Made by a program: the position numbers and the translations under genes. DNA of 64,000 nucleotides. It comes from Candidatus Iainarchaeum sp. (GTDB taxonomy: Archaea > Iainarchaeota > Iainarchaeia > Iainarchaeales > UBA10191). The notes beneath the pieces were generated by a model that did not search any database, was not told where the DNA came from, and was given only the letters and a program-made list of their open reading frames with translations. Below are positions 22,470 through 34,172 of this stretch, piece after piece. The first letter of the stretch is position 1. The number at the start of each line of letters is the position of its first letter. The stretch lies in NCBI GenBank assembly GCA_030649735.1, contig JAUSFL010000008.1, forward strand, positions 32,001-96,000, read 5' to 3'.

Positions 22470-23930
22470 TCATGGCCCCTCGCGGCCTGTGCTAATGCAG
22501 ATCGCATTGCACGCTCCTGGATTTTGGCAAGAATCTATTGTTGAAGGATTATTGTCATTGCACTCTGAGCTTGAAAAACAGTAAGGAGTTGTGCAGTTTC
22601 CATTGCAGACTACTTGAGTTGGTTGGCAATTTCTTCCAATATTTATTTCGGCAGAGTAAATATTCTGTATTTCGCTTAGCGAGAGCTGCCGCCCGTAAAT
22701 TTTTAAGTTATCTATTCTTCCATTAAATGTTCCGCTGAATGGAATGCTTCCTGACTGGTATGCCCCGTAAGTTGTTCCAATAAGCAAGTCTCTAGTTGCA
22801 GTTACGTCAATTTTTGGAGTGTTCTCATCGTAATCAGTCCAACTATTTGGGTAGGTTACAGTGTAATTCCTCAAGCCGCCGTCAATTATTGTAATGATTT
22901 TTATTGAATCAGCAGCTCTTTCGACAGTATAAGCCAAGTGGTGCCAGTTTCCGTCCATCCAACTGCCGCCTAAGTTTCCGAGCCAAGCACTGAATGCCTG
23001 GTTTGGCGGAGGGCTTATTGGCGAAGTGTGCCTTATGTCTCCGTCAGTAACATAAAACCTGTCCCTGTAAATTCCGAAGCCCGGGCCCACATCATAATAT
23101 GCATTTGCAAGCACTGCCTGCTGTAAAGTGTCGCCAGTGTTCAATGCCTTTGCCCAAAGCATTACTGTAAAGTTTGTGTTTTTTCCAAAGTTCAGGCTTT
23201 CGTTTCCTTGGATTTTTGGAATTTTGACATAGCTATTTGCTCGCCTGTCAATCACAAGCACTTTTCCCCTGACTGGATCGTTTTCTATGGCTGCGCTTCC
23301 AACAATTATTCCGTTGTTTCCAAGCCCTGACTTGTCCAGCACGTCAGTTTCAAAAGGCAAGAATAGTCTCAAATCGCTTGTGCATTTTGAAGTGTCAAAT
23401 GACTTGCAGTCTGTGCTGCATCCTAAAGTCCCGCTAATAAATCCTTGGGTCTGGCAAGTCTGTCCGCTAAGATCATTGCTGTCACAGACTTCGATGCCTT
23501 GCTTTATTCCATCGCCGCATTTGAAATTGTAGCATTCTGAAGTGTCAAACTGGCAGTCTTTGCAATATAGACCTCCGCCATCAAATCCCAGGTCTTTGCA
23601 AAGCTTTCCGCCAAGATTTGTACTGTCGCATTGCTCATTTTCGTCAATTATTTCATTGCCGCAAACTGCTTGAGTACTGCATGCTCCCAGGCAGCATCTT
23701 GAAGTGTCGCTTGCTGAAGTCCAGTCTTGCGAGCAGTTTTCTTTTTCATTGCATGTAATTCCATTTTGCTCTTGGCAGGTTTTCAGTGTTTGCTGGCAGT
23801 CTTGAGAGCAAGTGTATTGGTCTTCTCCTTGTTCGCAAACTCTGTTTCCGCAATATGCTGGCGGGTTAACGCATCCTGAAATCAAAATTAAGACGCTAGC
23901 AAACAATAACACAAATAATGCTTTTTTCAA
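22470..23930 (-). CDS. Surface lipoprotein: Cys-rich repeats + LamG/ConA-like domain
   Basis: TTG start after GGTGG; ILISGC lipobox; CGNxxCE and CDxxxLGGxxC repeats; WHHLAYT and FNGRIDNLKIY..LS LamG motifs. Confidence 0.8.
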   Translation of the reverse strand: MKKALFVLLFASVLILISGCVNPPAYCGNRVCEQGEDQYTCSQDCQQTLKTCQEQNGITCNEKENCSQDWTSASDTSRCCLGACSTQAVCGNEIIDENEQCDSTNLGGKLCKDLGFDGGGLYCKDCQFDTSECYNFKCGDGIKQGIEVCDSNDLSGQTCQTQGFISGTLGCSTDCKSFDTSKCTSDLRLFLPFETDVLDKSGLGNNGIIVGSAAIENDPVRGKVLVIDRRANSYVKIPKIQGNESLNFGKNTNFTVMLWAKALNTGDTLQQAVLANAYYDVGPGFGIYRDRFYVTDGDIRHTSPISPPPNQAFSAWLGNLGGSWMDGNWHHLAYTVERAADSIKIITIIDGGLRNYTVTYPNSWTDYDENTPKIDVTATRDLLIGTTYGAYQSGSIPFSGTFNGRIDNLKIYGRQLSLSEIQNIYSAEINIGRNCQPTQVVCNGNCTTPYCFSSSECNDNNPSTIDSCQNPGACNAICISTGREGP

Positions 23931-23993
23931 AACCCACCAACTCCTTTTTAGGAAAATTAAATATTTAAAGCTGAAATGCACAGCAGAAGCAAT

Positions 23994-26432
23994 TTATTTT
24001 GCTTCCACTGTCTCGCTAACCTTAAACCTATACCCAGGCAGCATGAAATATGCAGTTCCATCAGCAACCCTGGCAATTGCTCCAGTGTCATCGTATGCTT
24101 TTGCATAGTATGAGTCTGGAGTGTCGCTCCTTAGGTTCAATGCCTGGATGTTTGTTTCGGCAATTCTTTGGACTTGGTAGTTATATCCTGACAAATTTGC
24201 GTTAGGCAATGTTATCAAGCTGCCATCACCGTATTTTGTTGAAATATGCGTTTTCCATTCAATATTTCCATTGGCTTGTCCATTGCCTTGCGCTCCAGAA
24301 TCTATGTAAAATTCTGCAACATAAAAAGTGTTGTCTGCTGCATCTCCACCAAATGCTGCATCATCTGGCCTGTAGTATTTTGTTTCTGGCATTGCATCTT
24401 CTCCAGCATCAGTTCCGTCAAACACTATTTTTTTGTTGAGCTGTGTTATAAATTCTTGGTTTGCCATTACTAGCCATAGTTTGCTGTCCCCTTCTCTGAC
24501 TTGCAAGGCATACTTGAAGGTTTGCGAGTTTGCGCCTTCTAATTTGAAAGCCTCTCCTCTTGGATCCCAAACTTGTCCATCAGTGTAGTAGACATATCCA
24601 TAACCTGGCGAGGTTGTGTTAAAGTCTCCAATGTACGCCAATGAATCTGCGCTTCTGGTTGTTGAGTTCTTCAAGAATTGGATTTTTCCGCTTGTTGAAA
24701 GCCAGACAAAATTTGGCCCTCGTCCAGTTATGTTGTAAGTCACTCCGTCAACACTAAGACCGCTTGGGTTTCCCAATTGCCTTATGCCTGCCACTATTAT
24801 TGAATTGCTGTCTATAATCCATTGTCTTCCGTTAATGATGTTTCCGCTGTTGACTTTAAAGTTAGTATCTGTTTTGTCGACTTGGTAGTTGATTGTTTTG
24901 CCGTCGAAAGTGAATGCCTGCCACTGGTCGTCTGAGGCATCGCCCTTGTAAACCATTGGGATTGAATGCGATACTCCGTCAAGGTCGGCATATCCTATTT
25001 GCTCTCTTCCGATTTTAATTTCTGTGACTTGCTGGGCTGGCCCAAATCCATTGAAGGTTATGCTGTATTTTCCGCCAGTAAATTGTGCTGTTTGGCTGCC
25101 ATCCAATGCTTTTGCGTCAGTCCATCTTTGGTTGGAATTGCTGATTTCAATTCCAGTCAAGGCATCGTTGGCTATAATTAATTTTGCTTTCCAATCGTAA
25201 ATTCCAGTAGTGTTGTTTGGGTCGTAAGGGAATCCTTTATTGTTGAAAATTGTCATTACTGGTTGGCTCAAGTCTGATTCTTTTCCTAAAACAAGCTGTT
25301 CATTTCCGGCCGAATCCAGTTTGAGCGATATGACTGAGTATAATTTTCCAAGTAATGGAATGTTTCGGTTAGTTCCTGGAGTTATTGCATTGAAAGCAAC
25401 AACATACTTGAATGCTCCAGCATCAATGTCCAATGCCATTCTTTCAACGTCTGATGCTGTATTGAATCTTGGGTTTGCCGCAAGAACAAGTTTTTCTCCA
25501 TCAAGCAAACTAGTCAATTCTGTTTTGGTTAAAGTTTTATTGAATCCTGCTTCTAAAGGAGTTGTTGCAGAAATCAAATTGTCGCTTAAAGTGACTTTAG
25601 AGCTTGTTTGAACGCAGTCTTGCGGGCAGTTTGAAGTGTCTTCTGTTGCTTCGCAAACGCTGTTTCCGCAAATTACTTCCCTAATGTATTCTTTTCCGTC
25701 CTTGGAATAGCTTTCAAAAACGCTTGATCCTCCAATGCTTCCATCTCCTGAAAGATAGCTTAATTTCAGCACGCAGGCTCCTGAATTGTAAACATTCCTT
25801 TGGAAGTAATACCTGCAGTTTGTTCCTTGATTATAGTCAATGCCTTCAGAGCACACCGGCTCGCCGTAAGTTGCCAGGTGGATGTTAAAGCAATTGTCAA
25901 AGCCCGAAGCTAGTTGGGCACTGTTTAATTGTCCTTTTCCATCCTTGAAGTTTGCCCAAACCCTGTGGCTGTCTCCGCCAGCTCCAATGTCAAATGACGG
26001 CGCTGAATATTGCTGGGTTTGGATTTTTTCCAATACTACTATAAAATTCTGATTTTCTTTAAGAACTATTTCAATTTCTTTTTTTGGGTAATATCCATCC
26101 AGGCTTACATTGGCCAAGTAAGTGTCTGGCTCAAGCACGAATGTCGCGCTTCCTTCAGAGTCTGTGCTTCTTTGATCTGTTGGCCCATAGTTAACTCCGT
26201 CAACTTCAATCATTGCGCCCGCAAGCGGATTTCCGTCAACATCTTTTGCCATGAATTTTAATTCAAAAGTCTGCTGTGTGCAATCTTGTGCGCAGTATGT
26301 TGGAAGGCTTGAATTGTCTTCAAGGCCTTGCTCGCAAATATTGTCTCCACAGACTGGATTGGGCGGGTTTACGCATCCAGAAATCAATATTATTCCGACA
26401 GCAAACAGTAATGCAAATAGAACTTTTTTCAA
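23994..26432 (-). CDS. Large surface lipoprotein (carboxypeptidase-regulatory-like domain, S-layer-like C-terminal region)
   Basis: IILISGC lipobox; DVDGNPLAGA...TDSEG beta-sandwich; two CGxxxCE...CxQDC modules; long beta-rich D/N/G/T region. Confidence 0.7.
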   Translation of the reverse strand: MKKVLFALLFAVGIILISGCVNPPNPVCGDNICEQGLEDNSSLPTYCAQDCTQQTFELKFMAKDVDGNPLAGAMIEVDGVNYGPTDQRSTDSEGSATFVLEPDTYLANVSLDGYYPKKEIEIVLKENQNFIVVLEKIQTQQYSAPSFDIGAGGDSHRVWANFKDGKGQLNSAQLASGFDNCFNIHLATYGEPVCSEGIDYNQGTNCRYYFQRNVYNSGACVLKLSYLSGDGSIGGSSVFESYSKDGKEYIREVICGNSVCEATEDTSNCPQDCVQTSSKVTLSDNLISATTPLEAGFNKTLTKTELTSLLDGEKLVLAANPRFNTASDVERMALDIDAGAFKYVVAFNAITPGTNRNIPLLGKLYSVISLKLDSAGNEQLVLGKESDLSQPVMTIFNNKGFPYDPNNTTGIYDWKAKLIIANDALTGIEISNSNQRWTDAKALDGSQTAQFTGGKYSITFNGFGPAQQVTEIKIGREQIGYADLDGVSHSIPMVYKGDASDDQWQAFTFDGKTINYQVDKTDTNFKVNSGNIINGRQWIIDSNSIIVAGIRQLGNPSGLSVDGVTYNITGRGPNFVWLSTSGKIQFLKNSTTRSADSLAYIGDFNTTSPGYGYVYYTDGQVWDPRGEAFKLEGANSQTFKYALQVREGDSKLWLVMANQEFITQLNKKIVFDGTDAGEDAMPETKYYRPDDAAFGGDAADNTFYVAEFYIDSGAQGNGQANGNIEWKTHISTKYGDGSLITLPNANLSGYNYQVQRIAETNIQALNLRSDTPDSYYAKAYDDTGAIARVADGTAYFMLPGYRFKVSETVEAK

Positions 26433-26517: not shown

Positions 26518-28854
26518 TTAAAGGTTTGCCGGCAAATCAGTTTGCGGTTCCTTGATTGCCGATTTTACTTTAATCAGGATTGCGGCCTGTATCAGGAACA
26601 CAATTACTGCTCCGGGAATTTCGAAAAGCCTTGCCGCAATCAAAGGCGCTATCATGAAAGTTGCCGCAATGAAAATTATAAGCAAGTACTTGAGCTTTGA
26701 CTTTTGGGTCTGCATGAAATGGTTTGTTATTACTGTAGTAAAAACTAGCATTGTTATTGCAGCCAATATCAGGAAGTACAAAAATCCATTCTCTGCTGTC
26801 GCCTGCTTTCCTGCAATGCTTTCAATTTTTTTGGATTCTATTGGCAGTCCGGGAATCACGTTGATTATTGGCTTTCTTACTGTGAATTCTCCGCTGATTT
26901 TTTGGCCTTCAAATGATATTTGGAAGAAAGTCTTGCCGTACTTGTCTACCTTGAACACAAATTCTCCATTTGAGTTTGGCTGCAGCACTTGGGTGTTGCC
27001 GTCAGGCGTGGCAAGCAATAATGTCGCGTTTTTTATTGTGTTCTGGTTTTCGTCCTTTACTGAGATTATTTGATAGTCTCCAACATCAACCACTTGGCTA
27101 AAAACTGCCTTTGGAGGCTGTTTTTTCGCTGGAGGCAGTATTACCGGCTTGTTAGTGTCTTTTTTTGGTGGTGGCACTGGTGGAGTAATTCCCCCGCCTG
27201 GTGGATTTCCGCCTCCCCCTCCTCCGCCCCCACCGCCGCCTGGAGGTTGTGTTATTGTATTGTTTACGCAGGTTGAACTGCAAGTTCCCGGGCTAGTGCA
27301 AGAATCTGATGTGGAAGGATTGCTGTCGTCGCATTCTGCGCCTGAAGAGCAGTAAGGAGTTGTGCAATTGTGGTTGCAGAGTATTTGGTTTCCAGTGCAA
27401 GTAGGGTCTGTTGGGGAATTGACGCACAGCGCATTGCACAATCCTGCATTAGTGCAAATGTCCAATGTTAAAGGATTATTGTCATTACATTGTGAACTCA
27501 AAGTGCATGTTGGGGTAATGCAGCTTCCAGTGCACAGGATTTTTCCCGCAGTGCAAGTAATTAAAGTGTGAGTGCAGGAAGCAGTGCAAGAGCTTGGGTT
27601 ATTGCAAACGTCAATAGTGTTTGCGTTGCTGTCATTGCACGCTGAATTTGAATCGCATGCTGGAACTATGCAGTTTCCGCTGCAAGACAATTGAGGCAGG
27701 ACACAGATTGCCTGGTTTGTTTTGGCAGGCAGGTTCGCGCTTAAATTGCTTTCATTGCCTACATTGTCTAATGCGCTGATTTGGAAGTTGTAGTCTGTGT
27801 TTGGCGTTAAGCCAGTTACCTTGTATGTTATTGCCGGCTTGTTGACTTTTGTCACTAGCGCTCCGTTAGAGTATATCCTGTAAGCGTTCAAGTCTGTTTC
27901 AAAGTTTGCGTTCCATGCTAGAGTGACGCTGTTTGAGTCTTTTGTTGAAACCCTAAAGTTTGCCGGGGTGTTTGGCGCATTATTGTCTGCTGAAATCGGG
28001 TCTGTTTTAATTGTTAGAATGCCGCTTCTTGGGCTTTCGTTTTGAGTATGGTCTAGCGCTGTGATTTGGAAATTATAATCAGTGTTTTGCGTCAAGCCAA
28101 TTGCAGTATAGGTTACTGTTGGCTTGTTGACCTTAATCAAAAAAACATTGTTTTTGTAAATTTTGTAAGAGTTCAGGTCTGTTTCAGGGTTTGCGTTCCA
28201 TGCAAGGCTTATGCTGTTTGTGGTGTTGGCTGTAGAGCGAAAGTTTGTTGGGGTGTTTGGCGCATTGGTGTCTGTTGTTGTCTGGCAGTATGAATTGCAA
28301 GATCTTGGCTGAATGCAAGTTTGGCCTGCACTGCAGTTTGAATCCTGAAAGCACGCTATTGCATGGCCGCAGGTTGAAACTGACCCATTGGTTACTGTAA
28401 ATGCAATTGGCTGGCCTGAATTGTTTGAAAGCTGTGCATTGACAATGCTTATTCCGCTGAAATAGTTGGTGTCTGCATGAAATGTCAGTGTTGCCAGAGT
28501 TCCATTTGCTGTAATCCCCCCAGTAGCCATGCGCACGCAAGTTAATTTTGAAACAAGGCCAGAACCGACTTGCCAAATGCTTGAGTCAGTGCACCAAACG
28601 TCAGTTCCGACAATCCCTATAATATTTGCAAATCTTGCGTTCTGGAATGAAATAACGCTTCCATTGTACTGCACGTCAAATTGGAAGCCGTAAAGATTGC
28701 TGATGCTTTCTGCGGAAATGTTCACGTCAAAGTTGGAATTCAATGACGCAATGCCGTTTGCTGGCTGGACCAAGAGCTTTTGCGCGCTTACAAGCGCGGC
28801 TGGTAGAAGAAAACAAAGCAGAATTGCAGTTAAAAACAATGAAGCCTTTCGCAT
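26518..28854 (-). CDS. Membrane-anchored scaffold: cohesin + 2 FN3 + Cys-rich repeats + Gly/Pro linker + C-terminal TMs
   Basis: Signal peptide; 'FDVNI..SNLYGFQFDVQYN...GTLATLTF' cohesin; two 'APNTP..SLAW..YxIY..GLTxNTDYNFQIxALD..NES' FN3; ~3 TMs. Confidence 0.8.
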   Translation of the reverse strand: MRKASLFLTAILLCFLLPAALVSAQKLLVQPANGIASLNSNFDVNISAESISNLYGFQFDVQYNGSVISFQNARFANIIGIVGTDVWCTDSSIWQVGSGLVSKLTCVRMATGGITANGTLATLTFHADTNYFSGISIVNAQLSNNSGQPIAFTVTNGSVSTCGHAIACFQDSNCSAGQTCIQPRSCNSYCQTTTDTNAPNTPTNFRSTANTTNSISLAWNANPETDLNSYKIYKNNVFLIKVNKPTVTYTAIGLTQNTDYNFQITALDHTQNESPRSGILTIKTDPISADNNAPNTPANFRVSTKDSNSVTLAWNANFETDLNAYRIYSNGALVTKVNKPAITYKVTGLTPNTDYNFQISALDNVGNESNLSANLPAKTNQAICVLPQLSCSGNCIVPACDSNSACNDSNANTIDVCNNPSSCTASCTHTLITCTAGKILCTGSCITPTCTLSSQCNDNNPLTLDICTNAGLCNALCVNSPTDPTCTGNQILCNHNCTTPYCSSGAECDDSNPSTSDSCTSPGTCSSTCVNNTITQPPGGGGGGGGGGGNPPGGGITPPVPPPKKDTNKPVILPPAKKQPPKAVFSQVVDVGDYQIISVKDENQNTIKNATLLLATPDGNTQVLQPNSNGEFVFKVDKYGKTFFQISFEGQKISGEFTVRKPIINVIPGLPIESKKIESIAGKQATAENGFLYFLILAAITMLVFTTVITNHFMQTQKSKLKYLLIIFIAATFMIAPLIAARLFEIPGAVIVFLIQAAILIKVKSAIKEPQTDLPANL

Positions 28855-28898
28855 AATATACCTAATTTAGAAAGCTCTTTGCCTATTTATACTTTTTC

Positions 28899-31019
28899 TC
28901 AGCATGCTGTTCCAAAATGCTTTGCAACTTCCTGCAGGTCTTGGATGTTGACTCCGTCATTTCCTATAATGTCTGCTGGGTCTCCTGTTGTATTGCCTAA
29001 GCGCAGGCTGACAAAGACCAGGTCAAACACGTCAACTTTTAAGTCCAAGGTTAAGTCAAAGCAGGTTCTTGCCGGGATTGGAGTGTGGGTGCAGTTTGCA
29101 GTGCAATTGCTTGGATTATTGCAAGTGTCTGTTGTCAAAGAATTGCTGTCGTTGCAGGCTGCATTGCTAGAGCAGGCTGGAGTAATGCAAGAGCTGCTGC
29201 ACAATATTTGCGGCAAAACACAAGAAGGTAAACTGCCAGAATACTCGAAAGCGCCAATGTCTGGAGAATCAATTATTGGGTTTCCTGCATAGTCGCTTGT
29301 CAAGCCCACGTCAGTTCCTGCATTGATTGCCTGGCTGCCTTGCTTTAGCTGGAAGTCTCCTGGATTTCTGAAGCTTCCGCTTGCATTAATTAATTGCGGG
29401 TCAGCAAGCCAGGAGTTGGAGTCGCCAGACTTTACAACCCAATCAGCATAGTTTGTCGAGTCTTTTCCAAGCCAGCGGAACTTGTTGTTTCCGCTTAAAG
29501 TGTCTGGCCAGTACAAGTTGTTGCTGATTTTAATTAAATTATTGCTAGTGACTGCAGGCATTGGGGTGTAATAGAAATTTCCACCGCTTTTTGGATTTAG
29601 CGTTATATTATTCTTTGCGGTAAACCCAATTCCTCCAGGCAAGTGAGGATAATAAATTTTAGAACTTGGCGGGTTTTCGTATCTTCCCAAATCTGCCCAG
29701 AAAATTCCCCCAGCAACATCATGGAATACATTGTTGTAAATTGCTGCAGGCACTTCCCCGCCATCTCCTTTGCCGCGAATTGCATAGCCTACTCCAAGGG
29801 TTTCCGGATTGTTTTTTGTGCCAATGTTGCTGAAAATATTATTATAAATTTGCCAATTGTTTGAGCGCGAGCCAAAGTTTGCAGCATTAGTTCCATGCTT
29901 TGCAACTCCGTAATGCAAGTGTGCGCCTTCATCATCATTTAAGTTTGTAAAACTGTTGCGGCGAATTGTTACGTTTTCCATTTTTCCAGTCGAGCCCATG
30001 TAATCAATTACTCCATCGCCATGCCAGTCGTGAATATTAGAATCTTCAATAAGCAGGTTTGACATGTTTTGCCCGCCGATTGCATGCGCGTCATTATTTC
30101 CAAAAATATTGTAGTGGCGCTGTTCTCCACTGTAGATTTCAACTTTACTGAATGTCCAGTTATTGTGAGCTGCTCCGCCGCCGTAAATTGCATAGCTTCC
30201 GCAGGTTACATCGTGAATTTTCACGTTTTCAATTAGGATGTTGTCAGTGCTTGCTCCTTGCGCATAAACTGCAGTGTAATTCCCGAATGCAATTTCGCTG
30301 TCAATGATTGAGATATTTGAGGTTGGTGTTGGGTTTGGGTCTGTGGCTTTTACCAATCGAATTCCGCCGTCATTTCCAGAGCCTCCAAAAAGCCTTAGGT
30401 TTCTGTATTCAATGAAATCACTTCCCCGGTTATACCAGGAGGCAGTCCAATTCCAGTAAATGTCATCCAATTTTCCAAGTGGATTGACATACATTATTCT
30501 TGCATTTGCGTCAATCCATGCGCTGCCGTCAGTATTTGCAACTTCGCTTGGAGTATTTACATTATTGTAAGACCGCAATAAAATTGGAGAATTTGCGGGG
30601 TCGCCCTGCCAAAAATAAGCACCGCCGTATCCTCCAGTTGGCGCTGAAAAGCTTCCGTCATGCAAATCAGTGAATGACGCTTTCAGCATCTTTCTTGCTG
30701 CAATAATAACTCCTGGATTGTTTGGGCAGTTTCCGCGGATTATAATATGCTTGTCGGCAGTGCCGCTTGCAAGCGTTTGGTTAGAGCCATAATTGAAATC
30801 CACTGGATAAATGAAGGTTCCGCAAATGTAAAGAGTGTCGCCCGCCTTAACGCCGCTAGCGCCCCACACAATTTTTTGAAAGCCGTCAAAAGCAGTTTCA
30901 AAACTAGTTCCGTTTTCTGTTGCATTCTCAAATTGGGTTGCAGGCCTTACAAACCAGTCTGTCGCAAAAGCAAAGCCTGAAAGAAAAAGTAATGCAACAA
31001 TCGCAAATGCAAATCGCAT
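28899..31019 (-). CDS. Secreted right-handed beta-helix (pectin-lyase-like) protein with C-terminal dockerin
   Basis: Signal peptide; AGDTLYI; Asn-ladder repeats; DFQL..SQAINAG...PDIGAFEY; duplicated Ca-loops DLTLDLKVDVFDL and DIIGNDGVNIQDL. Confidence 0.78.
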   Translation of the reverse strand: MRFAFAIVALLFLSGFAFATDWFVRPATQFENATENGTSFETAFDGFQKIVWGASGVKAGDTLYICGTFIYPVDFNYGSNQTLASGTADKHIIIRGNCPNNPGVIIAARKMLKASFTDLHDGSFSAPTGGYGGAYFWQGDPANSPILLRSYNNVNTPSEVANTDGSAWIDANARIMYVNPLGKLDDIYWNWTASWYNRGSDFIEYRNLRLFGGSGNDGGIRLVKATDPNPTPTSNISIIDSEIAFGNYTAVYAQGASTDNILIENVKIHDVTCGSYAIYGGGAAHNNWTFSKVEIYSGEQRHYNIFGNNDAHAIGGQNMSNLLIEDSNIHDWHGDGVIDYMGSTGKMENVTIRRNSFTNLNDDEGAHLHYGVAKHGTNAANFGSRSNNWQIYNNIFSNIGTKNNPETLGVGYAIRGKGDGGEVPAAIYNNVFHDVAGGIFWADLGRYENPPSSKIYYPHLPGGIGFTAKNNITLNPKSGGNFYYTPMPAVTSNNLIKISNNLYWPDTLSGNNKFRWLGKDSTNYADWVVKSGDSNSWLADPQLINASGSFRNPGDFQLKQGSQAINAGTDVGLTSDYAGNPIIDSPDIGAFEYSGSLPSCVLPQILCSSSCITPACSSNAACNDSNSLTTDTCNNPSNCTANCTHTPIPARTCFDLTLDLKVDVFDLVFVSLRLGNTTGDPADIIGNDGVNIQDLQEVAKHFGTAC

Positions 31020-31080
31020 GGCAACAAATAGAAATTCAGAATATTTAAGGTTTTTTAATTAAGAAAGCAATTGGCCGGAA

Positions 31081-31845
31081 TTATCTCTTTTTCTTTGCAA
31101 AGACCTTGTCGAGGTTTCTTGCCAAGTCCAGCACTTCAACCGGGATTGCAATGACTACTGTGTTGCTTGAAGTTGGCCCGAGGCCGTCCAAGGTCTGCAA
31201 AGTCCTGAGTTGCATTGCTCCGGGGCTTTTTGCCATTACTGAGGCTGCCTTTGCCAGGTTTTCCGAGGCCATTCTGTCTCCCTCGGACTTTATGATTGTG
31301 GCCCTTTTTTCCCTTTCACTGGAAGCCTGCCTGCTCATAAGCCTTTTCAAGTCTTCAGGCATGTCAATGTCTTGCAGCTTGATGTCTGTGACTTCAATGC
31401 CCCAGTTTTTTGAGGCTTCTTCAACAATTTGCTCAATGTCTTTTCCAATGCGCTCTCTTTCGCCAAGCACTTGGTCAAGGGTCATGCTGCCTACAACATC
31501 CCTTAATGCTGTCTGCGCGTATTGTGAAACAGCGTACTGGAAGTCCTGCACTTTAATGATTGCGGTTGCAGCGTCAACAACCTTGAAGTAGACCACTCCG
31601 TTAATGTTCATTGGAACATTGTCTTTTGAGATCACTTGCTGTCTTGGAATGTCAATTGTCAGAATTCTCATGTCTATTTTGTGCACTATGTCAAATATTG
31701 GGACCACAAAATTCAGCCCTGGTTGCAAGGTTCCCTTGTATCTTCCAAGCCTGAATTTCACCCCGGTTTCCCACTGGTTGACAATGCGAATGCTTGCAAG
31801 GATTATGACAATTATTACAATTAGCAAAATTATTTCCAGAACCAT
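31081..31845 (-). CDS. SPFH/band 7 (slipin/stomatin-like) protein
   Basis: N-terminal TM, FRLGR, PGLNFVVP, SKDNV, AQTALRDVVG, MQLRTLQT. Confidence 0.95.
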   Translation of the reverse strand: MVLEIILLIVIIVIILASIRIVNQWETGVKFRLGRYKGTLQPGLNFVVPIFDIVHKIDMRILTIDIPRQQVISKDNVPMNINGVVYFKVVDAATAIIKVQDFQYAVSQYAQTALRDVVGSMTLDQVLGERERIGKDIEQIVEEASKNWGIEVTDIKLQDIDMPEDLKRLMSRQASSEREKRATIIKSEGDRMASENLAKAASVMAKSPGAMQLRTLQTLDGLGPTSSNTVVIAIPVEVLDLARNLDKVFAKKKR

Positions 31846-32072: not shown

Positions 32073-34172
32073 TCAGTTCGCTGATTTTTTCCACTTTAAT
32101 TTTGCTTCTTCAGAATTCTCGTTTTGGATTTTTGCCGCGAAATAAAATGCAGACACCGCAATTAATGCCAGAACAAGCAGTCCGAGCCAGAATGCGTTTG
32201 CGCCGAGGACCGCGAATGCAGTGAACATTGCGGCAAAAGCCGGCCTGTTTGCCTTCAAGAGGATTGGCTCTGAAAAATTGAAGCCGGTGCTTGTTTGGAA
32301 CAGCATTTGGGCCTGAACGTCTTTGTCATTAAATCCTGAAGGCGGCATTGCCTGAAGCATTATTGTCCTTGATTCCATTGCGCCTAAAGAAACATTTGGA
32401 TTTCCCTGGATTTCCCACCCGCTCGGCAAGTCCACTTCAATGCTTCCTGAGACTGGAAAATTGCTTTGGTTTTGCACTGTAACATTCAAGTTGTAATTTC
32501 CATCATTCAATGGCTGCACTGTTGTTTGAATGTCAATGTTTGGGTTTTGCTGAATTGGCTGGGGCTGCGGTTGTGGAGTTGCGGTAATTGCTTTGACCTT
32601 GACTATTTTTGAAACCCTTGATAGTGTGGTGAAGTTTGGCAGGAAAATGTCGTAAAACAGCCATGCCTTGTTTGCGTCAAGATTGCTGATTGTTATTTTT
32701 GCGCTAACGCTGTTTGAAGTGCTTGGAATCACAATTGCCTGAGGATCAACAAAAGCATCTGGACTGTATACTTTTATATAACCTGAATTTCCGGTGTTGT
32801 TTACTATGGTTACTGTGATTTGCTGTGGGCCGTTTTCTGGAACTTGGATTGTTTCCGGAAAGAAAATCTGGAAATCGTTTTGATTTGGAGTTTCAGGGTC
32901 GTCTTCAATTGCGCTGATTGAAAAGTCATTGTTTCCGATGCTGTCTGTTCCACAATATGAGTTGTCTTCAAACACCCCGGAAATCTTGAAAGTTCCTGAA
33001 GCTGTCTTTCCCGCGGAGTTTTCAAAACTGTCAACTCTTATTGGAACCTGCAGGGCGCCGTGCGCGTTAATGCTTGTTCCATCTGCCTTCAGGGCTGTTG
33101 TTGTGAAGAATTCTGAATCGTCAAAGGCCTGGATGCTTTCGACAAAGAATGCCTTGTCCGAGTCGTTTTTTACAATAAAATACTCTTTTTTTGAGTCGTT
33201 TTTTGCGAGAAAGAATCTTTTAGTGTAGGAAATAATATTTGAACAGGCTGTTGTCCCGCTAATGCTGTTTTCGCTTAAGTAATTGGTTGTTGTGTTGAAG
33301 CTGTCTACTGTGTTATAGCTGTCTGTGACATTGTTGTAGTAATAATTGCTTGGGCTTGCTCCTGAGAATTCTGCCGTGCTGTAATCAGTTGAACCGCTGT
33401 CTGTTTCTGCCTGTTGTATTTCGCTTCCTTTCACGTAAGTCTGGAAGTTTTCTGAAATGTCTGAGAAAGAACAATCCTGTTCTGAATCGTCAAAATAGCC
33501 TTCAATTTTCAAGTATGCTGTGGTGCTTTTGCTTTCGATTCCAGGGTCTGCCTGCACTCTCAAGGTAACTGTTCCGCTGCTGTTGTCTGGAATGAAATCG
33601 TCAATGCTATAAGGGTCTATTTCAACTTCTGAGTCGTTTTCCACGACAATAACTCGGGAAATGCTGAAAATGAAGTTTGACTTGTTGTCTATGTAAAAGT
33701 CTTCATAGCTTGTCTGGCCTTCATTGATTGTTATTGGCCTTGTTGCAATGTCGATGTCAGTGCAGTATGGCTTGTCTATTTGCTCAACAGAGCTTATCAT
33801 TGAGTAATCTGTTGAGTAAAATGCTGTCGGGTAGTAATAGTAGCTGTAGGTTGGGTTGTACCAGTAATTGTCATAATAGCGCCAGGCATTGTCTCTGTAC
33901 CAATTATTGCCGTTGTAATAGAACCAGCCGGAATTTTGATAGTACCACTGGCTGTTGTAGTTGTAGCGAAAATTGTTTGGAAAATAATAATAATCGCTTC
34001 CGTAATAATAGTAAGGGTCTGCAGAGTAATAGTATCCGTTGTTCTTGTAAATTTCAAAATAAACCTGCCCCGGCCCCCATTGCATTGTCAAGCCAGAATA
34101 GCCTGCCGCCTGTACTGTGCAAACCATTGCAATTAGTGCCATTGCAGTTAAGAAAATGTTTCTCAATTTCAC
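32073..34172 (-). CDS. Cell-surface protein: Tyr-rich N-terminus, Ig-like repeats, NEW3-like domain, C-terminal TM
   Basis: Signal peptide; YYY/WY-rich segment; two Cys-bracketed ~115-aa repeats; VDLPSGW; TM with basic tail. Confidence 0.8.
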   Translation of the reverse strand: MKLRNIFLTAMALIAMVCTVQAAGYSGLTMQWGPGQVYFEIYKNNGYYYSADPYYYYGSDYYYFPNNFRYNYNSQWYYQNSGWFYYNGNNWYRDNAWRYYDNYWYNPTYSYYYYPTAFYSTDYSMISSVEQIDKPYCTDIDIATRPITINEGQTSYEDFYIDNKSNFIFSISRVIVVENDSEVEIDPYSIDDFIPDNSSGTVTLRVQADPGIESKSTTAYLKIEGYFDDSEQDCSFSDISENFQTYVKGSEIQQAETDSGSTDYSTAEFSGASPSNYYYNNVTDSYNTVDSFNTTTNYLSENSISGTTACSNIISYTKRFFLAKNDSKKEYFIVKNDSDKAFFVESIQAFDDSEFFTTTALKADGTSINAHGALQVPIRVDSFENSAGKTASGTFKISGVFEDNSYCGTDSIGNNDFSISAIEDDPETPNQNDFQIFFPETIQVPENGPQQITVTIVNNTGNSGYIKVYSPDAFVDPQAIVIPSTSNSVSAKITISNLDANKAWLFYDIFLPNFTTLSRVSKIVKVKAITATPQPQPQPIQQNPNIDIQTTVQPLNDGNYNLNVTVQNQSNFPVSGSIEVDLPSGWEIQGNPNVSLGAMESRTIMLQAMPPSGFNDKDVQAQMLFQTSTGFNFSEPILLKANRPAFAAMFTAFAVLGANAFWLGLLVLALIAVSAFYFAAKIQNENSEEAKLKWKKSAN

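Follow-up and report, generated by a model that had tools for sequence, protein, structure and literature searches.

The subject of this work is a pair of adjacent genes, P1 and P2, in a 64,000-nt stretch of contig JAUSFL010000008.1 (assembly GCA_030649735.1), hereafter called the window, together with the cohesin and putative dockerin modules of the genome from which it comes. All coordinates of the two genes are positions in the window, on its minus strand, and the source genome carries the label G000 in our survey of relatives. P1 (26518..28854) is an open reading frame (ORF) of 778 amino acids (aa) with Pfam fn3 and Cohesin matches, coding for a membrane-anchored protein with a single cohesin, and its Cohesin match is one of four in the genome. 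P2 (28899..31019) is an ORF of 706 aa, coding for a secreted beta-helix protein with a dockerin-like tag of what we call class A at its C-terminus, and with no transmembrane (TM) segment besides the signal peptide. The limits of both ORFs are exactly those given in a first-pass annotation of this DNA, which had proposed that the two proteins form a minimal cellulosome-like surface-display system in a DPANN-type archaeon.

Domain layout of P1 and P2

P1 begins with a signal peptide (residues 1-24, 28783..28854), recognised as a hydrophobic N-terminal segment; the order of signal peptide and then cohesin is common to all four cohesin proteins of the genome. The domain that follows (residues 25-161, 28372..28782) is confirmed as a true cohesin by Pfam, by a profile search of the PDB, by an AlphaFold2 model and by Foldseek. 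In Pfam (PF00963, curated cut-off 24.1 bits) the match extends over residues 39-159 (approx. 28378-28740) and profile positions 13-137 of 139, with 25.8 bits (E 1.3e-5) for the domain taken by itself, 24.6 bits in a six-frame scan and 21.0 bits, which is below the cut-off, in the whole protein. A profile of 12 cohesins (that of P1, those of its three paralogues here, and eight found in other genomes of its order) matched 23 distinct sequences in the PDB, all of them cohesins or cohesin-like modules, with a best E of 2.1e-15. The AlphaFold2 model of residues 25-175 is all-beta, with a predicted local distance difference test score (pLDDT) of 90.6 and a predicted template modelling (TM) score of 0.84. 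Its top-ranked Foldseek matches are all cohesins (best E 1.7e-10, TM scores 0.71/0.76), and the matches include the OlpA/OlpC structures 3ul4 and 4dh2 as well as 2xdh, a non-cellulosomal module of Archaeoglobus fulgidus (E 2e-9, TM scores 0.73/0.79). The domain had been described as cohesin-like, and the isolated Pfam score, the PDB profile and the cohesin-fold model all bear this out. Anchors of the P1 type are rare, with four clusters in a large protein collection, counting P1 and its paralogue; two close orthologues, P0016 and P0017, are 89% and 66% identical to P1.

The cohesin is followed by a Cys-rich linker with six Cys, identified by their positions (residues 162-190, 28285..28371), which in the alignment is kept in the P1 paralogue on contig C24 and in both cohesins (L054, L058) of the relative G019. 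The stalk continues with two FN3 domains (residues approx. 199-374, 27733..28260; Pfam fn3 E 2.9e-19 in two stretches, the best at 296-374) and three tandem 8-Cys modules of 44 residues, found with a regular expression and our own hidden Markov model (HMM), at residues 384-427, 434-477 and 486-529 (27268..27705). Then come a Gly/Pro-rich hinge visible in the translation (residues approx. 536-583, 27106..27249) and a weakly assigned Ig-like (CarboxypepD_reg-like) domain (residues 599-653, 26896..27060; PF13620 with 16.5 bits and E 0.011, below the cut-off). Approximately three C-terminal TM segments close the protein (residues 686-768, 26551..26799), with Kyte-Doolittle peaks of 2.3-2.5 in a 19-residue window and TM-like segments at 686-714, 720-746 and 733-768. 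A stalk of two FN3 domains, Cys modules and a Gly/Pro hinge, ending in TM segments, was therefore recovered as first described, by Pfam fn3, regular expression and HMM, translation and hydropathy. The 8-Cys module is present in P2 and in four other class-A cargo proteins too, and three weaker copies (E 8.4e-9) lie in a 3,130-aa ORF of another contig (C41:6211-15600, plus strand).

The Kyte-Doolittle scan of P2 gave an N-terminal signal-peptide-like segment and no other hydrophobic segment, in agreement with its earlier description as secreted and without membrane anchor. The body of the protein is predicted to be a right-handed parallel beta-helix (residues approx. 20-580, 29280..30962), on the basis of an AlphaFold2 model, Foldseek, VIA-align and NCBIfam. 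Behind it lie one 8-Cys module (residues 600-643, 29091..29222), which in the module alignment is most like the first module of the P1 stalk, and the class-A tag of 54 residues, from Cys653 to Cys706, with two EF-hand-like loops (28902..29063; 97-113 bits with an HMM built from the genome's own copies).

In the full-length AlphaFold2 model of P2, built on an alignment of nine sequences, the mean pLDDT is 65 and most of the body up to residue approx. 440 lies between 70 and 95. The best Foldseek match of the body is the GH120 enzyme XylC (3vst; E 2e-9, TM scores 0.45/0.50). VIA-align ranked the polysaccharide lyase RbmB of V. cholerae first (Z 29.2, root-mean-square deviation 2.6, 311 aligned residues), followed by the glycoside hydrolase (GH) BT_1002 (Z 27.6) and AlgE epimerases (Z 27.3), and then, at Z 24-26, by alginate lyases of polysaccharide lyase family 6 (PL6), phage tailspike depolymerases and GH28. 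Pfam Beta_helix matches with 20.3 bits, below its cut-off, and NCBIfam choice_anch_Q with 30.6 bits at residues 556-593; the alignment contains a conserved D-x-H-A-x-G-G-Q-N stretch around D310. Since the Z values are effectively tied, no single family can be assigned. Many lyases and hydrolases lie at Z 24-28. The models support a beta-helix of the polysaccharide-active type known from PL6, PL9, GH28, GH110, GH120 and RbmB, which is a statement of class and not of family or substrate, and to this extent the glycan-related function first suggested for P2 is supported by Foldseek and VIA-align.

P2 is rare as well: 14 homologous clusters were found among 5.8 billion, P2 itself included. One orthologue (P0002, 75% identity) carries both a P2-type 8-Cys module and a class-A tag, and several relatives share the body only. 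A more distant homologue (P0007, 26% identity) seems by eye to have, behind PKD repeats, a dockerin-like segment pair and then a cohesin-like stretch in its C-terminal part. Within the source genome, two class-A proteins are paralogues of P2, with 39% and 28% identity over approx. 590-660 residues; both of these body paralogues are encoded at C32:12193-19060 (L031-L033), where three genes with class-A tags stand in a row on one strand.

The spacer between P2 and P1 (28855..28898), as read from the sequence, has 44 nt, with an AT-rich, TATA-like box approx. 30 nt 5' of the P1 ATG. Two such boxes lie on the minus strand at 28884-28891 and 31040-31047, each approx. 30 nt 5' of an ATG, that of P1 and that of P2, respectively. 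Given the usual layout of archaeal promoters, a TATA-like box before each ATG makes separate promoters possible, so P1 and P2 may each have a promoter of their own and a very short leader.

Dockerin tags and cohesin anchors across the genome

Tags of the P2 kind were collected by a regular-expression scan and then by an HMM census of all ORFs of the genome. A Cys-bracketed module of approx. 54 residues is present in 24 ORFs, of which 13 (P2 included) belong to class A and 11 to class B. The 12 other class-A modules are 61-78% identical to the P2 tail; the class-A tag is C-terminal in 12 proteins and N-terminal in one. Scored against Pfam Dockerin_1 (PF00404, curated cut-off 22.9 bits), the siblings of the P2 tag in class A score 9.5-21.4 bits, rising to 23.4 bits if their neighbours are included, and the class-B copies score 22.6-26.9 bits, with the cut-off reached, for example, at 26.9, 24.2 and 23.7. 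With hhalign, class A aligns to class B over the full length (53 columns, 96.7%, E 3.2e-10).

A profile of the 13 class-A members, run against 1.84 billion representative proteins, gave 695 matches at E<=1e-3, of which 20 also passed E<=1e-10; no match was seen at 1e-30. Class A proper accounts for the 15 best (97.9 bits or more), the majority of which share the lengths of proteins of the source genome. Among the 150 matches listed, 40 were scanned for Dockerin_1, and in the second tier (P0153-P0187) Dockerin_1 was above its cut-off in at least 31 of 35 and missing in two. In the PDB, six of the seven matches of the profile are dockerins, with marginal E values (0.012-0.62). Because the class-A profile retrieves genuine Pfam dockerins and aligns to class B, the tail of P2 is, judged by its family, a real but divergent dockerin.

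The ligand positions of a dockerin Ca loop are numbered 1, 3, 5, 9 and 12. Positions 1, 5, 9 and 12 are conserved in 13 of 13 class-A copies, as D, D, D or N, and D in loop 1 and as D, N, N and D in loop 2. The first and last Cys are invariant in the tags, which suggests that the tag of P2 is probably closed by a disulfide clasp between Cys653 and Cys706. Two strict class-A peptide patterns found a single match among named species genomes, in a Pirellulales bacterium (42% identity), and their strictness bars reading this result as absence. Two further segments resemble the tags. At C18:8732-8812 (minus strand) a 26-aa frame, broken by TAA, holds half of a dockerin module (profile positions 27-53) and looks like the remnant of a tag, and at C47:30708-30854 (minus strand, L003) a 1,353-aa frame matches Dockerin_1 with 23.7 bits, above the cut-off, was missed by the class-A and class-B HMMs and could represent a third type of tag.

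The four Pfam Cohesin matches of the genome lie in four separate proteins, one in each. All four proteins have a signal peptide, an N-terminal cohesin, a variable stalk, one or more C-terminal TM helices and a basic tail. The P1 paralogue on contig C24 is 63% identical and has FN3 and LamG in its stalk; the remaining two, on contig C13, form a tandem of a small anchor (approx. 190 aa) and a large Cys-rich one (approx. 1,040 aa). The first-pass annotation had called the system minimal, and this did not hold: a genome-wide count of the tagged cargo gives 24 proteins in two classes, beside four cohesin anchors. With 13 proteins bearing the tag class of P2, P1 probably serves as an exchangeable socket for as many as 13 class-A proteins instead of P2 alone.

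In Pfam, the class-B cargo comprises GH10 (162 bits), GH18, GH88 (290 bits), heparinase II/III N- and C-terminal domains, a SASA-type esterase and GxGYxYP proteins. The class-A cargo comprises GH39 (the protein with the N-terminal tag), three Beta_helix proteins, and proteins with LamG lectin-like, He_PIG, Big_9 and cadherin-like domains; one class-A protein has a sub-threshold match to the disaggregatase repeat (26.8 bits, cut-off 33.9). At E<=1e-3, five of the tagged proteins match no family; at least a dozen count as carbohydrate-active or resemble beta-helix depolymerases. With the same threshold, neither a cellulase family nor a carbohydrate-binding module (CBM) turned up in the 26 proteins scanned, and P1 and P2 showed none either. 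Since each anchor has one cohesin, and neither cellulase nor CBM was seen, the strict definition of a cellulosome does not apply; the working principle, with enzymes tagged for docking to cohesins, is the same. Two contigs of 1,699 bp each, C10 and C19 (L038, L041), encode at the same coordinates near-identical 519-aa GxGYxYP-type proteins with class-B tags, which are probably strain variants or an assembly duplicate.

Gene adjacency, pairing and competing explanations

The neighbourhood of P2 and P1 is repeated within the genome, as on contig C24 a gene for a 1,476-aa class-A beta-helix protein is directly followed by the P1-type anchor, in the same order and on the same strand as in the P2-P1 pair. 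A match to the P1 cohesin was found in five of 60 relatives of the same order, and a Pfam cohesin in nine of the 215 genomes and seven of the 79 genera of the phylum, the source genome included. In five of the eight cohesin-positive relatives (G008, G019, G030, G047 and G141) a gene with a dockerin module lies approx. 0.1-2.2 kb from a cohesin gene. At the two relatives' loci that were read, the cassette is kept as a tagged protein, a small cohesin anchor (signal peptide, cohesin, TM, KKK) and a large Cys-rich cohesin anchor; the C13 tandem of the source genome is the same small and large anchor cassette, interrupted by the contig end. The synteny of dockerin and cohesin genes thus recurs on C24 and in related genomes, and this genomic context supports a functional link between tags and cohesins.

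The relatives also bear on which tag may belong to which cohesin. In G019, a complete genome, a tag scoring 38.9 bits with class A and 24.7 with class B lies 2.2 kb from the cohesin that is most like that of P1, including the shared Cys linker. In G008, tags with 98.8, 60.8 and 57.9 bits for class B, against 40.1, 37.1 and 28.8 bits for class A, precede a tandem of the C13 type. Taken with the two loci of the source genome where class A stands beside a P1-type cohesin, these scores suggest two specificity groups, in which class A would go with P1-type and class B with C13-type cohesins.

One complex prediction was made, from the alignment of the P1 cohesin, the alignment of the P2 tag and two Ca. 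The score of the pair was 0.32 (runs 0.30, 0.32 and 0.33), compared with 0.09 for the best control; at least 95% of contacts are shared by the runs, and the partner, the 54-residue tag, has a pLDDT of at least 87 (87-88). In calibration the mark was given to 58 of 80 solved complexes and two of 110 mismatched pairs, and at scores of 0.60 or less to only seven of the 80 solved complexes and to both of the mismatches; this calibration is rough here, as our own alignments and a ligand riding along were used, and the model may have retained cohesin-dockerin complexes that are already solved. The prediction of the two domains together therefore weakly favours docking of P2 to P1, and part of its result may be memory of solved complexes.

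On these data we consider it probable that P1 is one of four membrane receptors with a single cohesin, and P2 one of 24 secreted proteins with a dockerin tag, in a cell-bound system for polysaccharide foraging and adhesion. P1 would be exported and kept in the membrane by its three C-terminal helices, and the stalk of FN3 domains, Cys modules and Gly/Pro hinge would raise the cohesin off the membrane. P2 would be secreted by means of its signal peptide, and its C-terminal dockerin, with two Ca loops and the probable Cys653-Cys706 clasp, would plug non-covalently, and perhaps in a Ca-dependent manner, into the cohesin. Docking would keep a polysaccharide-cleaving beta-helix enzyme at the cell surface, and the whole system would display glycoside hydrolases, lyases, an esterase, and lectin-like and cadherin/Ig-like proteins. 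This would amount to a cellulosome-like apparatus built from membrane anchors with single cohesins instead of a scaffoldin with many.

Several results weigh against this explanation, some of which concern P2 itself. Residues 572-706, which hold the 8-Cys module and the tag, have a pLDDT below 50 in the full-length model; the body matches structures of lyases, hydrolases, epimerases and an adhesin about equally well. Tried in pieces of 67 and 133 residues, the tail of P2 matched no Pfam family at E<=10, nor is it among the Dockerin_1 matches in the six-frame Pfam scan of the genome; the dockerin first proposed for P2 is therefore upheld by the family profile and hhalign, and it is not upheld by PF00404 directly. 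Position 3 of the loops is non-canonical in 13 of 13 class-A copies, with Thr in loop 1 and a variable hydrophobic residue or Lys in loop 2. The first reading had already remarked that both Ca loops are partly degenerate, and this is now seen at position 3 throughout class A, for which reason Ca binding is not assured.

The degenerate loops would also fit tags that need no cohesin and that, stabilised by Ca and clasped by a disulfide, would serve in folding, stability, sorting or the binding of glycans; the cohesins would then serve, e.g., in cell-cell adhesion. The distribution in the phylum has a part that speaks for this, since tags may act without cohesins where the two do not occur together: G103, G138, G140 and G143 have tags and no Pfam cohesin, and three cohesin genomes have no tag at E<=1e-5. 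Enrichment in only one of the two module classes is common according to the accessible part of 10.1101/680553. However, the tag-only genomes are just 61-92% complete, tags and cohesins occur together in six of 215 genomes (cohesins in nine and tags in ten, with kin that are not independent of each other), and their genes are repeatedly adjacent. Archaeal cohesin-dockerin pairs are moreover stated to bind specifically in the available text of PMC9012536, which cites Bayer 1999 and Haimovitz 2008. We regard tags with a purely cohesin-free role as quite improbable. The combined class A and B profile has 25 matches in the source genome (24 intact and one stop-broken fragment) and one to four in each of the nine other positive genomes among the 215, a comparison that favours the source genome because the profile was built from its own tag copies; no other genome of the phylum approaches its tag count.

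A second explanation accepts the modules and denies the partnership: P2 would dock to the C13 or C24 cohesin, P1 would take class-B tags, and their adjacency would reflect the clustering of surface-protein genes. The genome has four cohesins for its 13 class-A and 11 class-B tags, and the thirteen tags of class A face only two P1-type cohesins, therefore adjacency is no proof that P2 is the partner of P1. The pair is indeed surrounded by a run of surface-protein genes in the window, and the complex score is weak. Set against this, both P1-type cohesin genes of the source genome have a class-A gene directly upstream, and the neighbourhoods in relatives point the same way, with a class-A-leaning tag beside a P1-like cohesin in G019 and class-B-leaning tags before a C13-type tandem in G008. 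We judge this second explanation to be unlikely.

The third explanation, that cohesin and dockerin genes came into the bin from contaminating bacteria, concerns the source genome as such, which has 1.28 Mb in 51 contigs, 92.7% completeness and an estimated contamination of 2.27%. That estimate gives it some room, several tag genes lie on very short contigs (C2, C10 and C19, of 1.3-1.7 kb) whose binning is uncertain, and the Pirellulales bacterium is the only class-A pattern match among named species genomes. P1 and P2, however, are on a contig of 149 kb that carries two further tag genes, and other tags are on contigs of 71-160 kb. Both sides of the locus carry genes for L32e, S4e, L5e/L18, SecY, EF-1alpha, EF-2, RtcB and the split A and B subunits of archaeal RNA polymerase; the nearest named homologue of P1 is labelled 'archaeon', and relatives of the same order share the cassette. 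Contamination is thus rejected for the P1/P2 locus and could apply at most to C2, C10 and C19; as an account of the whole set it is hardly credible.

The same genes speak for the identity of the organism. Among the best 120 homologues of EF-2, 25 are named by organism, with 16 labelled Candidatus Diapherotrites archaeon, two Candidatus Micrarchaeota and seven plain 'archaeon'. With the archaeal informational genes around the locus and these EF-2 matches, a DPANN archaeon, Diapherotrites-like, is supported as the owner of the genes, as the first-pass annotation had supposed. EF-2 of the source genome (43299-45494, minus strand, 731 aa) has no intein, and many close homologues of 900-1,280 aa in relatives carry the intein families PF14890 and PF14528.

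Other neighbours of the pair, all on the minus strand of the window, are as follows. Directly downstream of P1 lies a gene for an 812-aa secreted protein (23994-26432) with a lipobox-like N-terminus (..LISGC), a CarboxypepD_reg match at its cut-off, no TM segment and no tag. The next one downstream (22470-23981) codes for a 503-aa protein with LamG (37.9 bits) and one 8-Cys module of the P1/P2 type, without dockerin or cohesin. Upstream of P2, past an SPFH/Band-7 gene (31081-31845), a 699-aa protein (32073-34172) has an extremely Tyr/Asn-rich N-terminal region, a C-terminal TM segment and no Pfam family match.

Relation to known systems and biological meaning

If P1 and its paralogues do hold tagged enzymes at the cell surface, the target of these enzymes can be looked for in the environment or on another cell. 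An episymbiont could use them for attack on, or attachment to, a host, with lyases and hydrolases opening the host wall or capsule and LamG and cadherin-like cargo holding on. This is a variant of the best explanation that differs in the target, not in the mechanism. It would suit a DPANN lineage with a 1.28-Mb genome; GH88, the heparinase II/III-like lyase and the beta-helix depolymerase-like proteins suit acidic heteropolysaccharides, lectin-like and cadherin-like proteins are at hand, and the sub-threshold disaggregatase-repeat match in a class-A protein may be added. GH10, GH18 and GH39 point instead to environmental polymers of the xylan and chitin type, and the data would look alike for a host wall and for detrital polysaccharide. 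We therefore hold host attack to be somewhat unlikely as the purpose of the system.

Among known systems, surface anchors with one cohesin are a clostridial type, to which we take the anchoring proteins SdbA and ScaE to belong. The present anchors resemble OlpA and OlpC of C. thermocellum (3ul4, 4dh2), with one cohesin per protein, held at the surface and open to any protein with a matching dockerin. Unlike the clostridial anchors, P1 is held by C-terminal TM helices and neither by S-layer homology (SLH) domains nor by sortase, has a stalk of FN3 domains and 8-Cys modules, and belongs to an archaeon with a small genome. Clostridial cellulosomes differ further in their primary scaffoldin with several cohesins, which was not found here, and no anchor of the source genome carries a CBM.

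The modules of A. fulgidus (2xdh) are an archaeal likeness, being a cohesin and a dockerin outside any scaffoldin. The source genome seems to stand apart from them with four anchors and 24 Cys-bracketed tags, many on carbohydrate-active enzymes. The accessible part of PMC4611034 describes the amylosome of Ruminococcus bromii, likewise a case of glycoside hydrolases assembled by cohesin and dockerin, with a target polymer that is not cellulose; it is bacterial, dominated by GH13 and anchored otherwise, whereas the cargo here is a mixture of GH10, GH18, GH39 and GH88 with lyases and adhesin-like proteins. In ultra-small bacteria of the candidate phyla radiation (CPR; Cand. Shapirobacterales, Cand. 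Roizmanbacterium), reduced genomes also have cohesin and dockerin genes beside glycoside hydrolases and lyases, as far as the available text of PMC9123182 goes. Those are bacteria, however, and the same available text reports no such system for DPANN of the same groundwater.

Anaerobic methanotrophic archaea (ANME) are, in the source text available, another case of archaea whose surface proteins hold numerous cohesin and dockerin modules, in a role that is unclear. They differ in having proteins with up to five cohesins and a dockerin, according to the same text, whereas the anchors here each combine a single cohesin with a TM tail, and carbohydrate-active enzymes make up most of the cargo. 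More generally, the accessible part of PMC9012536 places cohesin and dockerin modules in diverse archaea without a link to cellulose, with archaeal pairs shown to bind, and says that archaea are without multi-cohesin scaffoldins and that ANME are rich in proteins with such modules. In a review (PMC12484212, as far as its text is available) the docking of enzymes in the manner of a cellulosome is described only for some anaerobic bacteria and fungi. Our literature search, which left most subscription journals and supplements outside, brought up no paper describing cohesin-dockerin systems for DPANN or Diapherotrites. As cohesins and dockerins of archaea were already known, what is new here is a system without scaffoldin, anchored in the membrane, with two classes of Cys-bracketed tags, carrying carbohydrate-active enzymes in a DPANN archaeon.

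A further step would be to see in it a functional equivalent of the cellulosome with two orthogonal codes, in which class A addresses the P1/C24-type anchors and class B the small and large tandem, and in which disulfide-locked tags build a scaffoldin-free, multi-enzyme and adhesive coat on the membrane; we consider this possible but doubtful. If it is true, such a two-code coat would enable an archaeon with a reduced genome to feed on complex glycans, or to breach them, unaided. Compact and possibly disulfide-stabilised cohesin-dockerin pairs could also be of interest for the design of synthetic scaffolds.

The prevailing view of DPANN archaea is that their metabolism is poor and that they depend on hosts. 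Four anchors and 24 tagged proteins are an investment in surface docking by a genome of 1.28 Mb. If the system works as proposed, a small cell would retain on its surface both the scarce enzymes that it secretes and the products of these enzymes, and this bears on whether some Diapherotrites-like DPANN are saccharolytic free-living organisms or cut glycans on a host.

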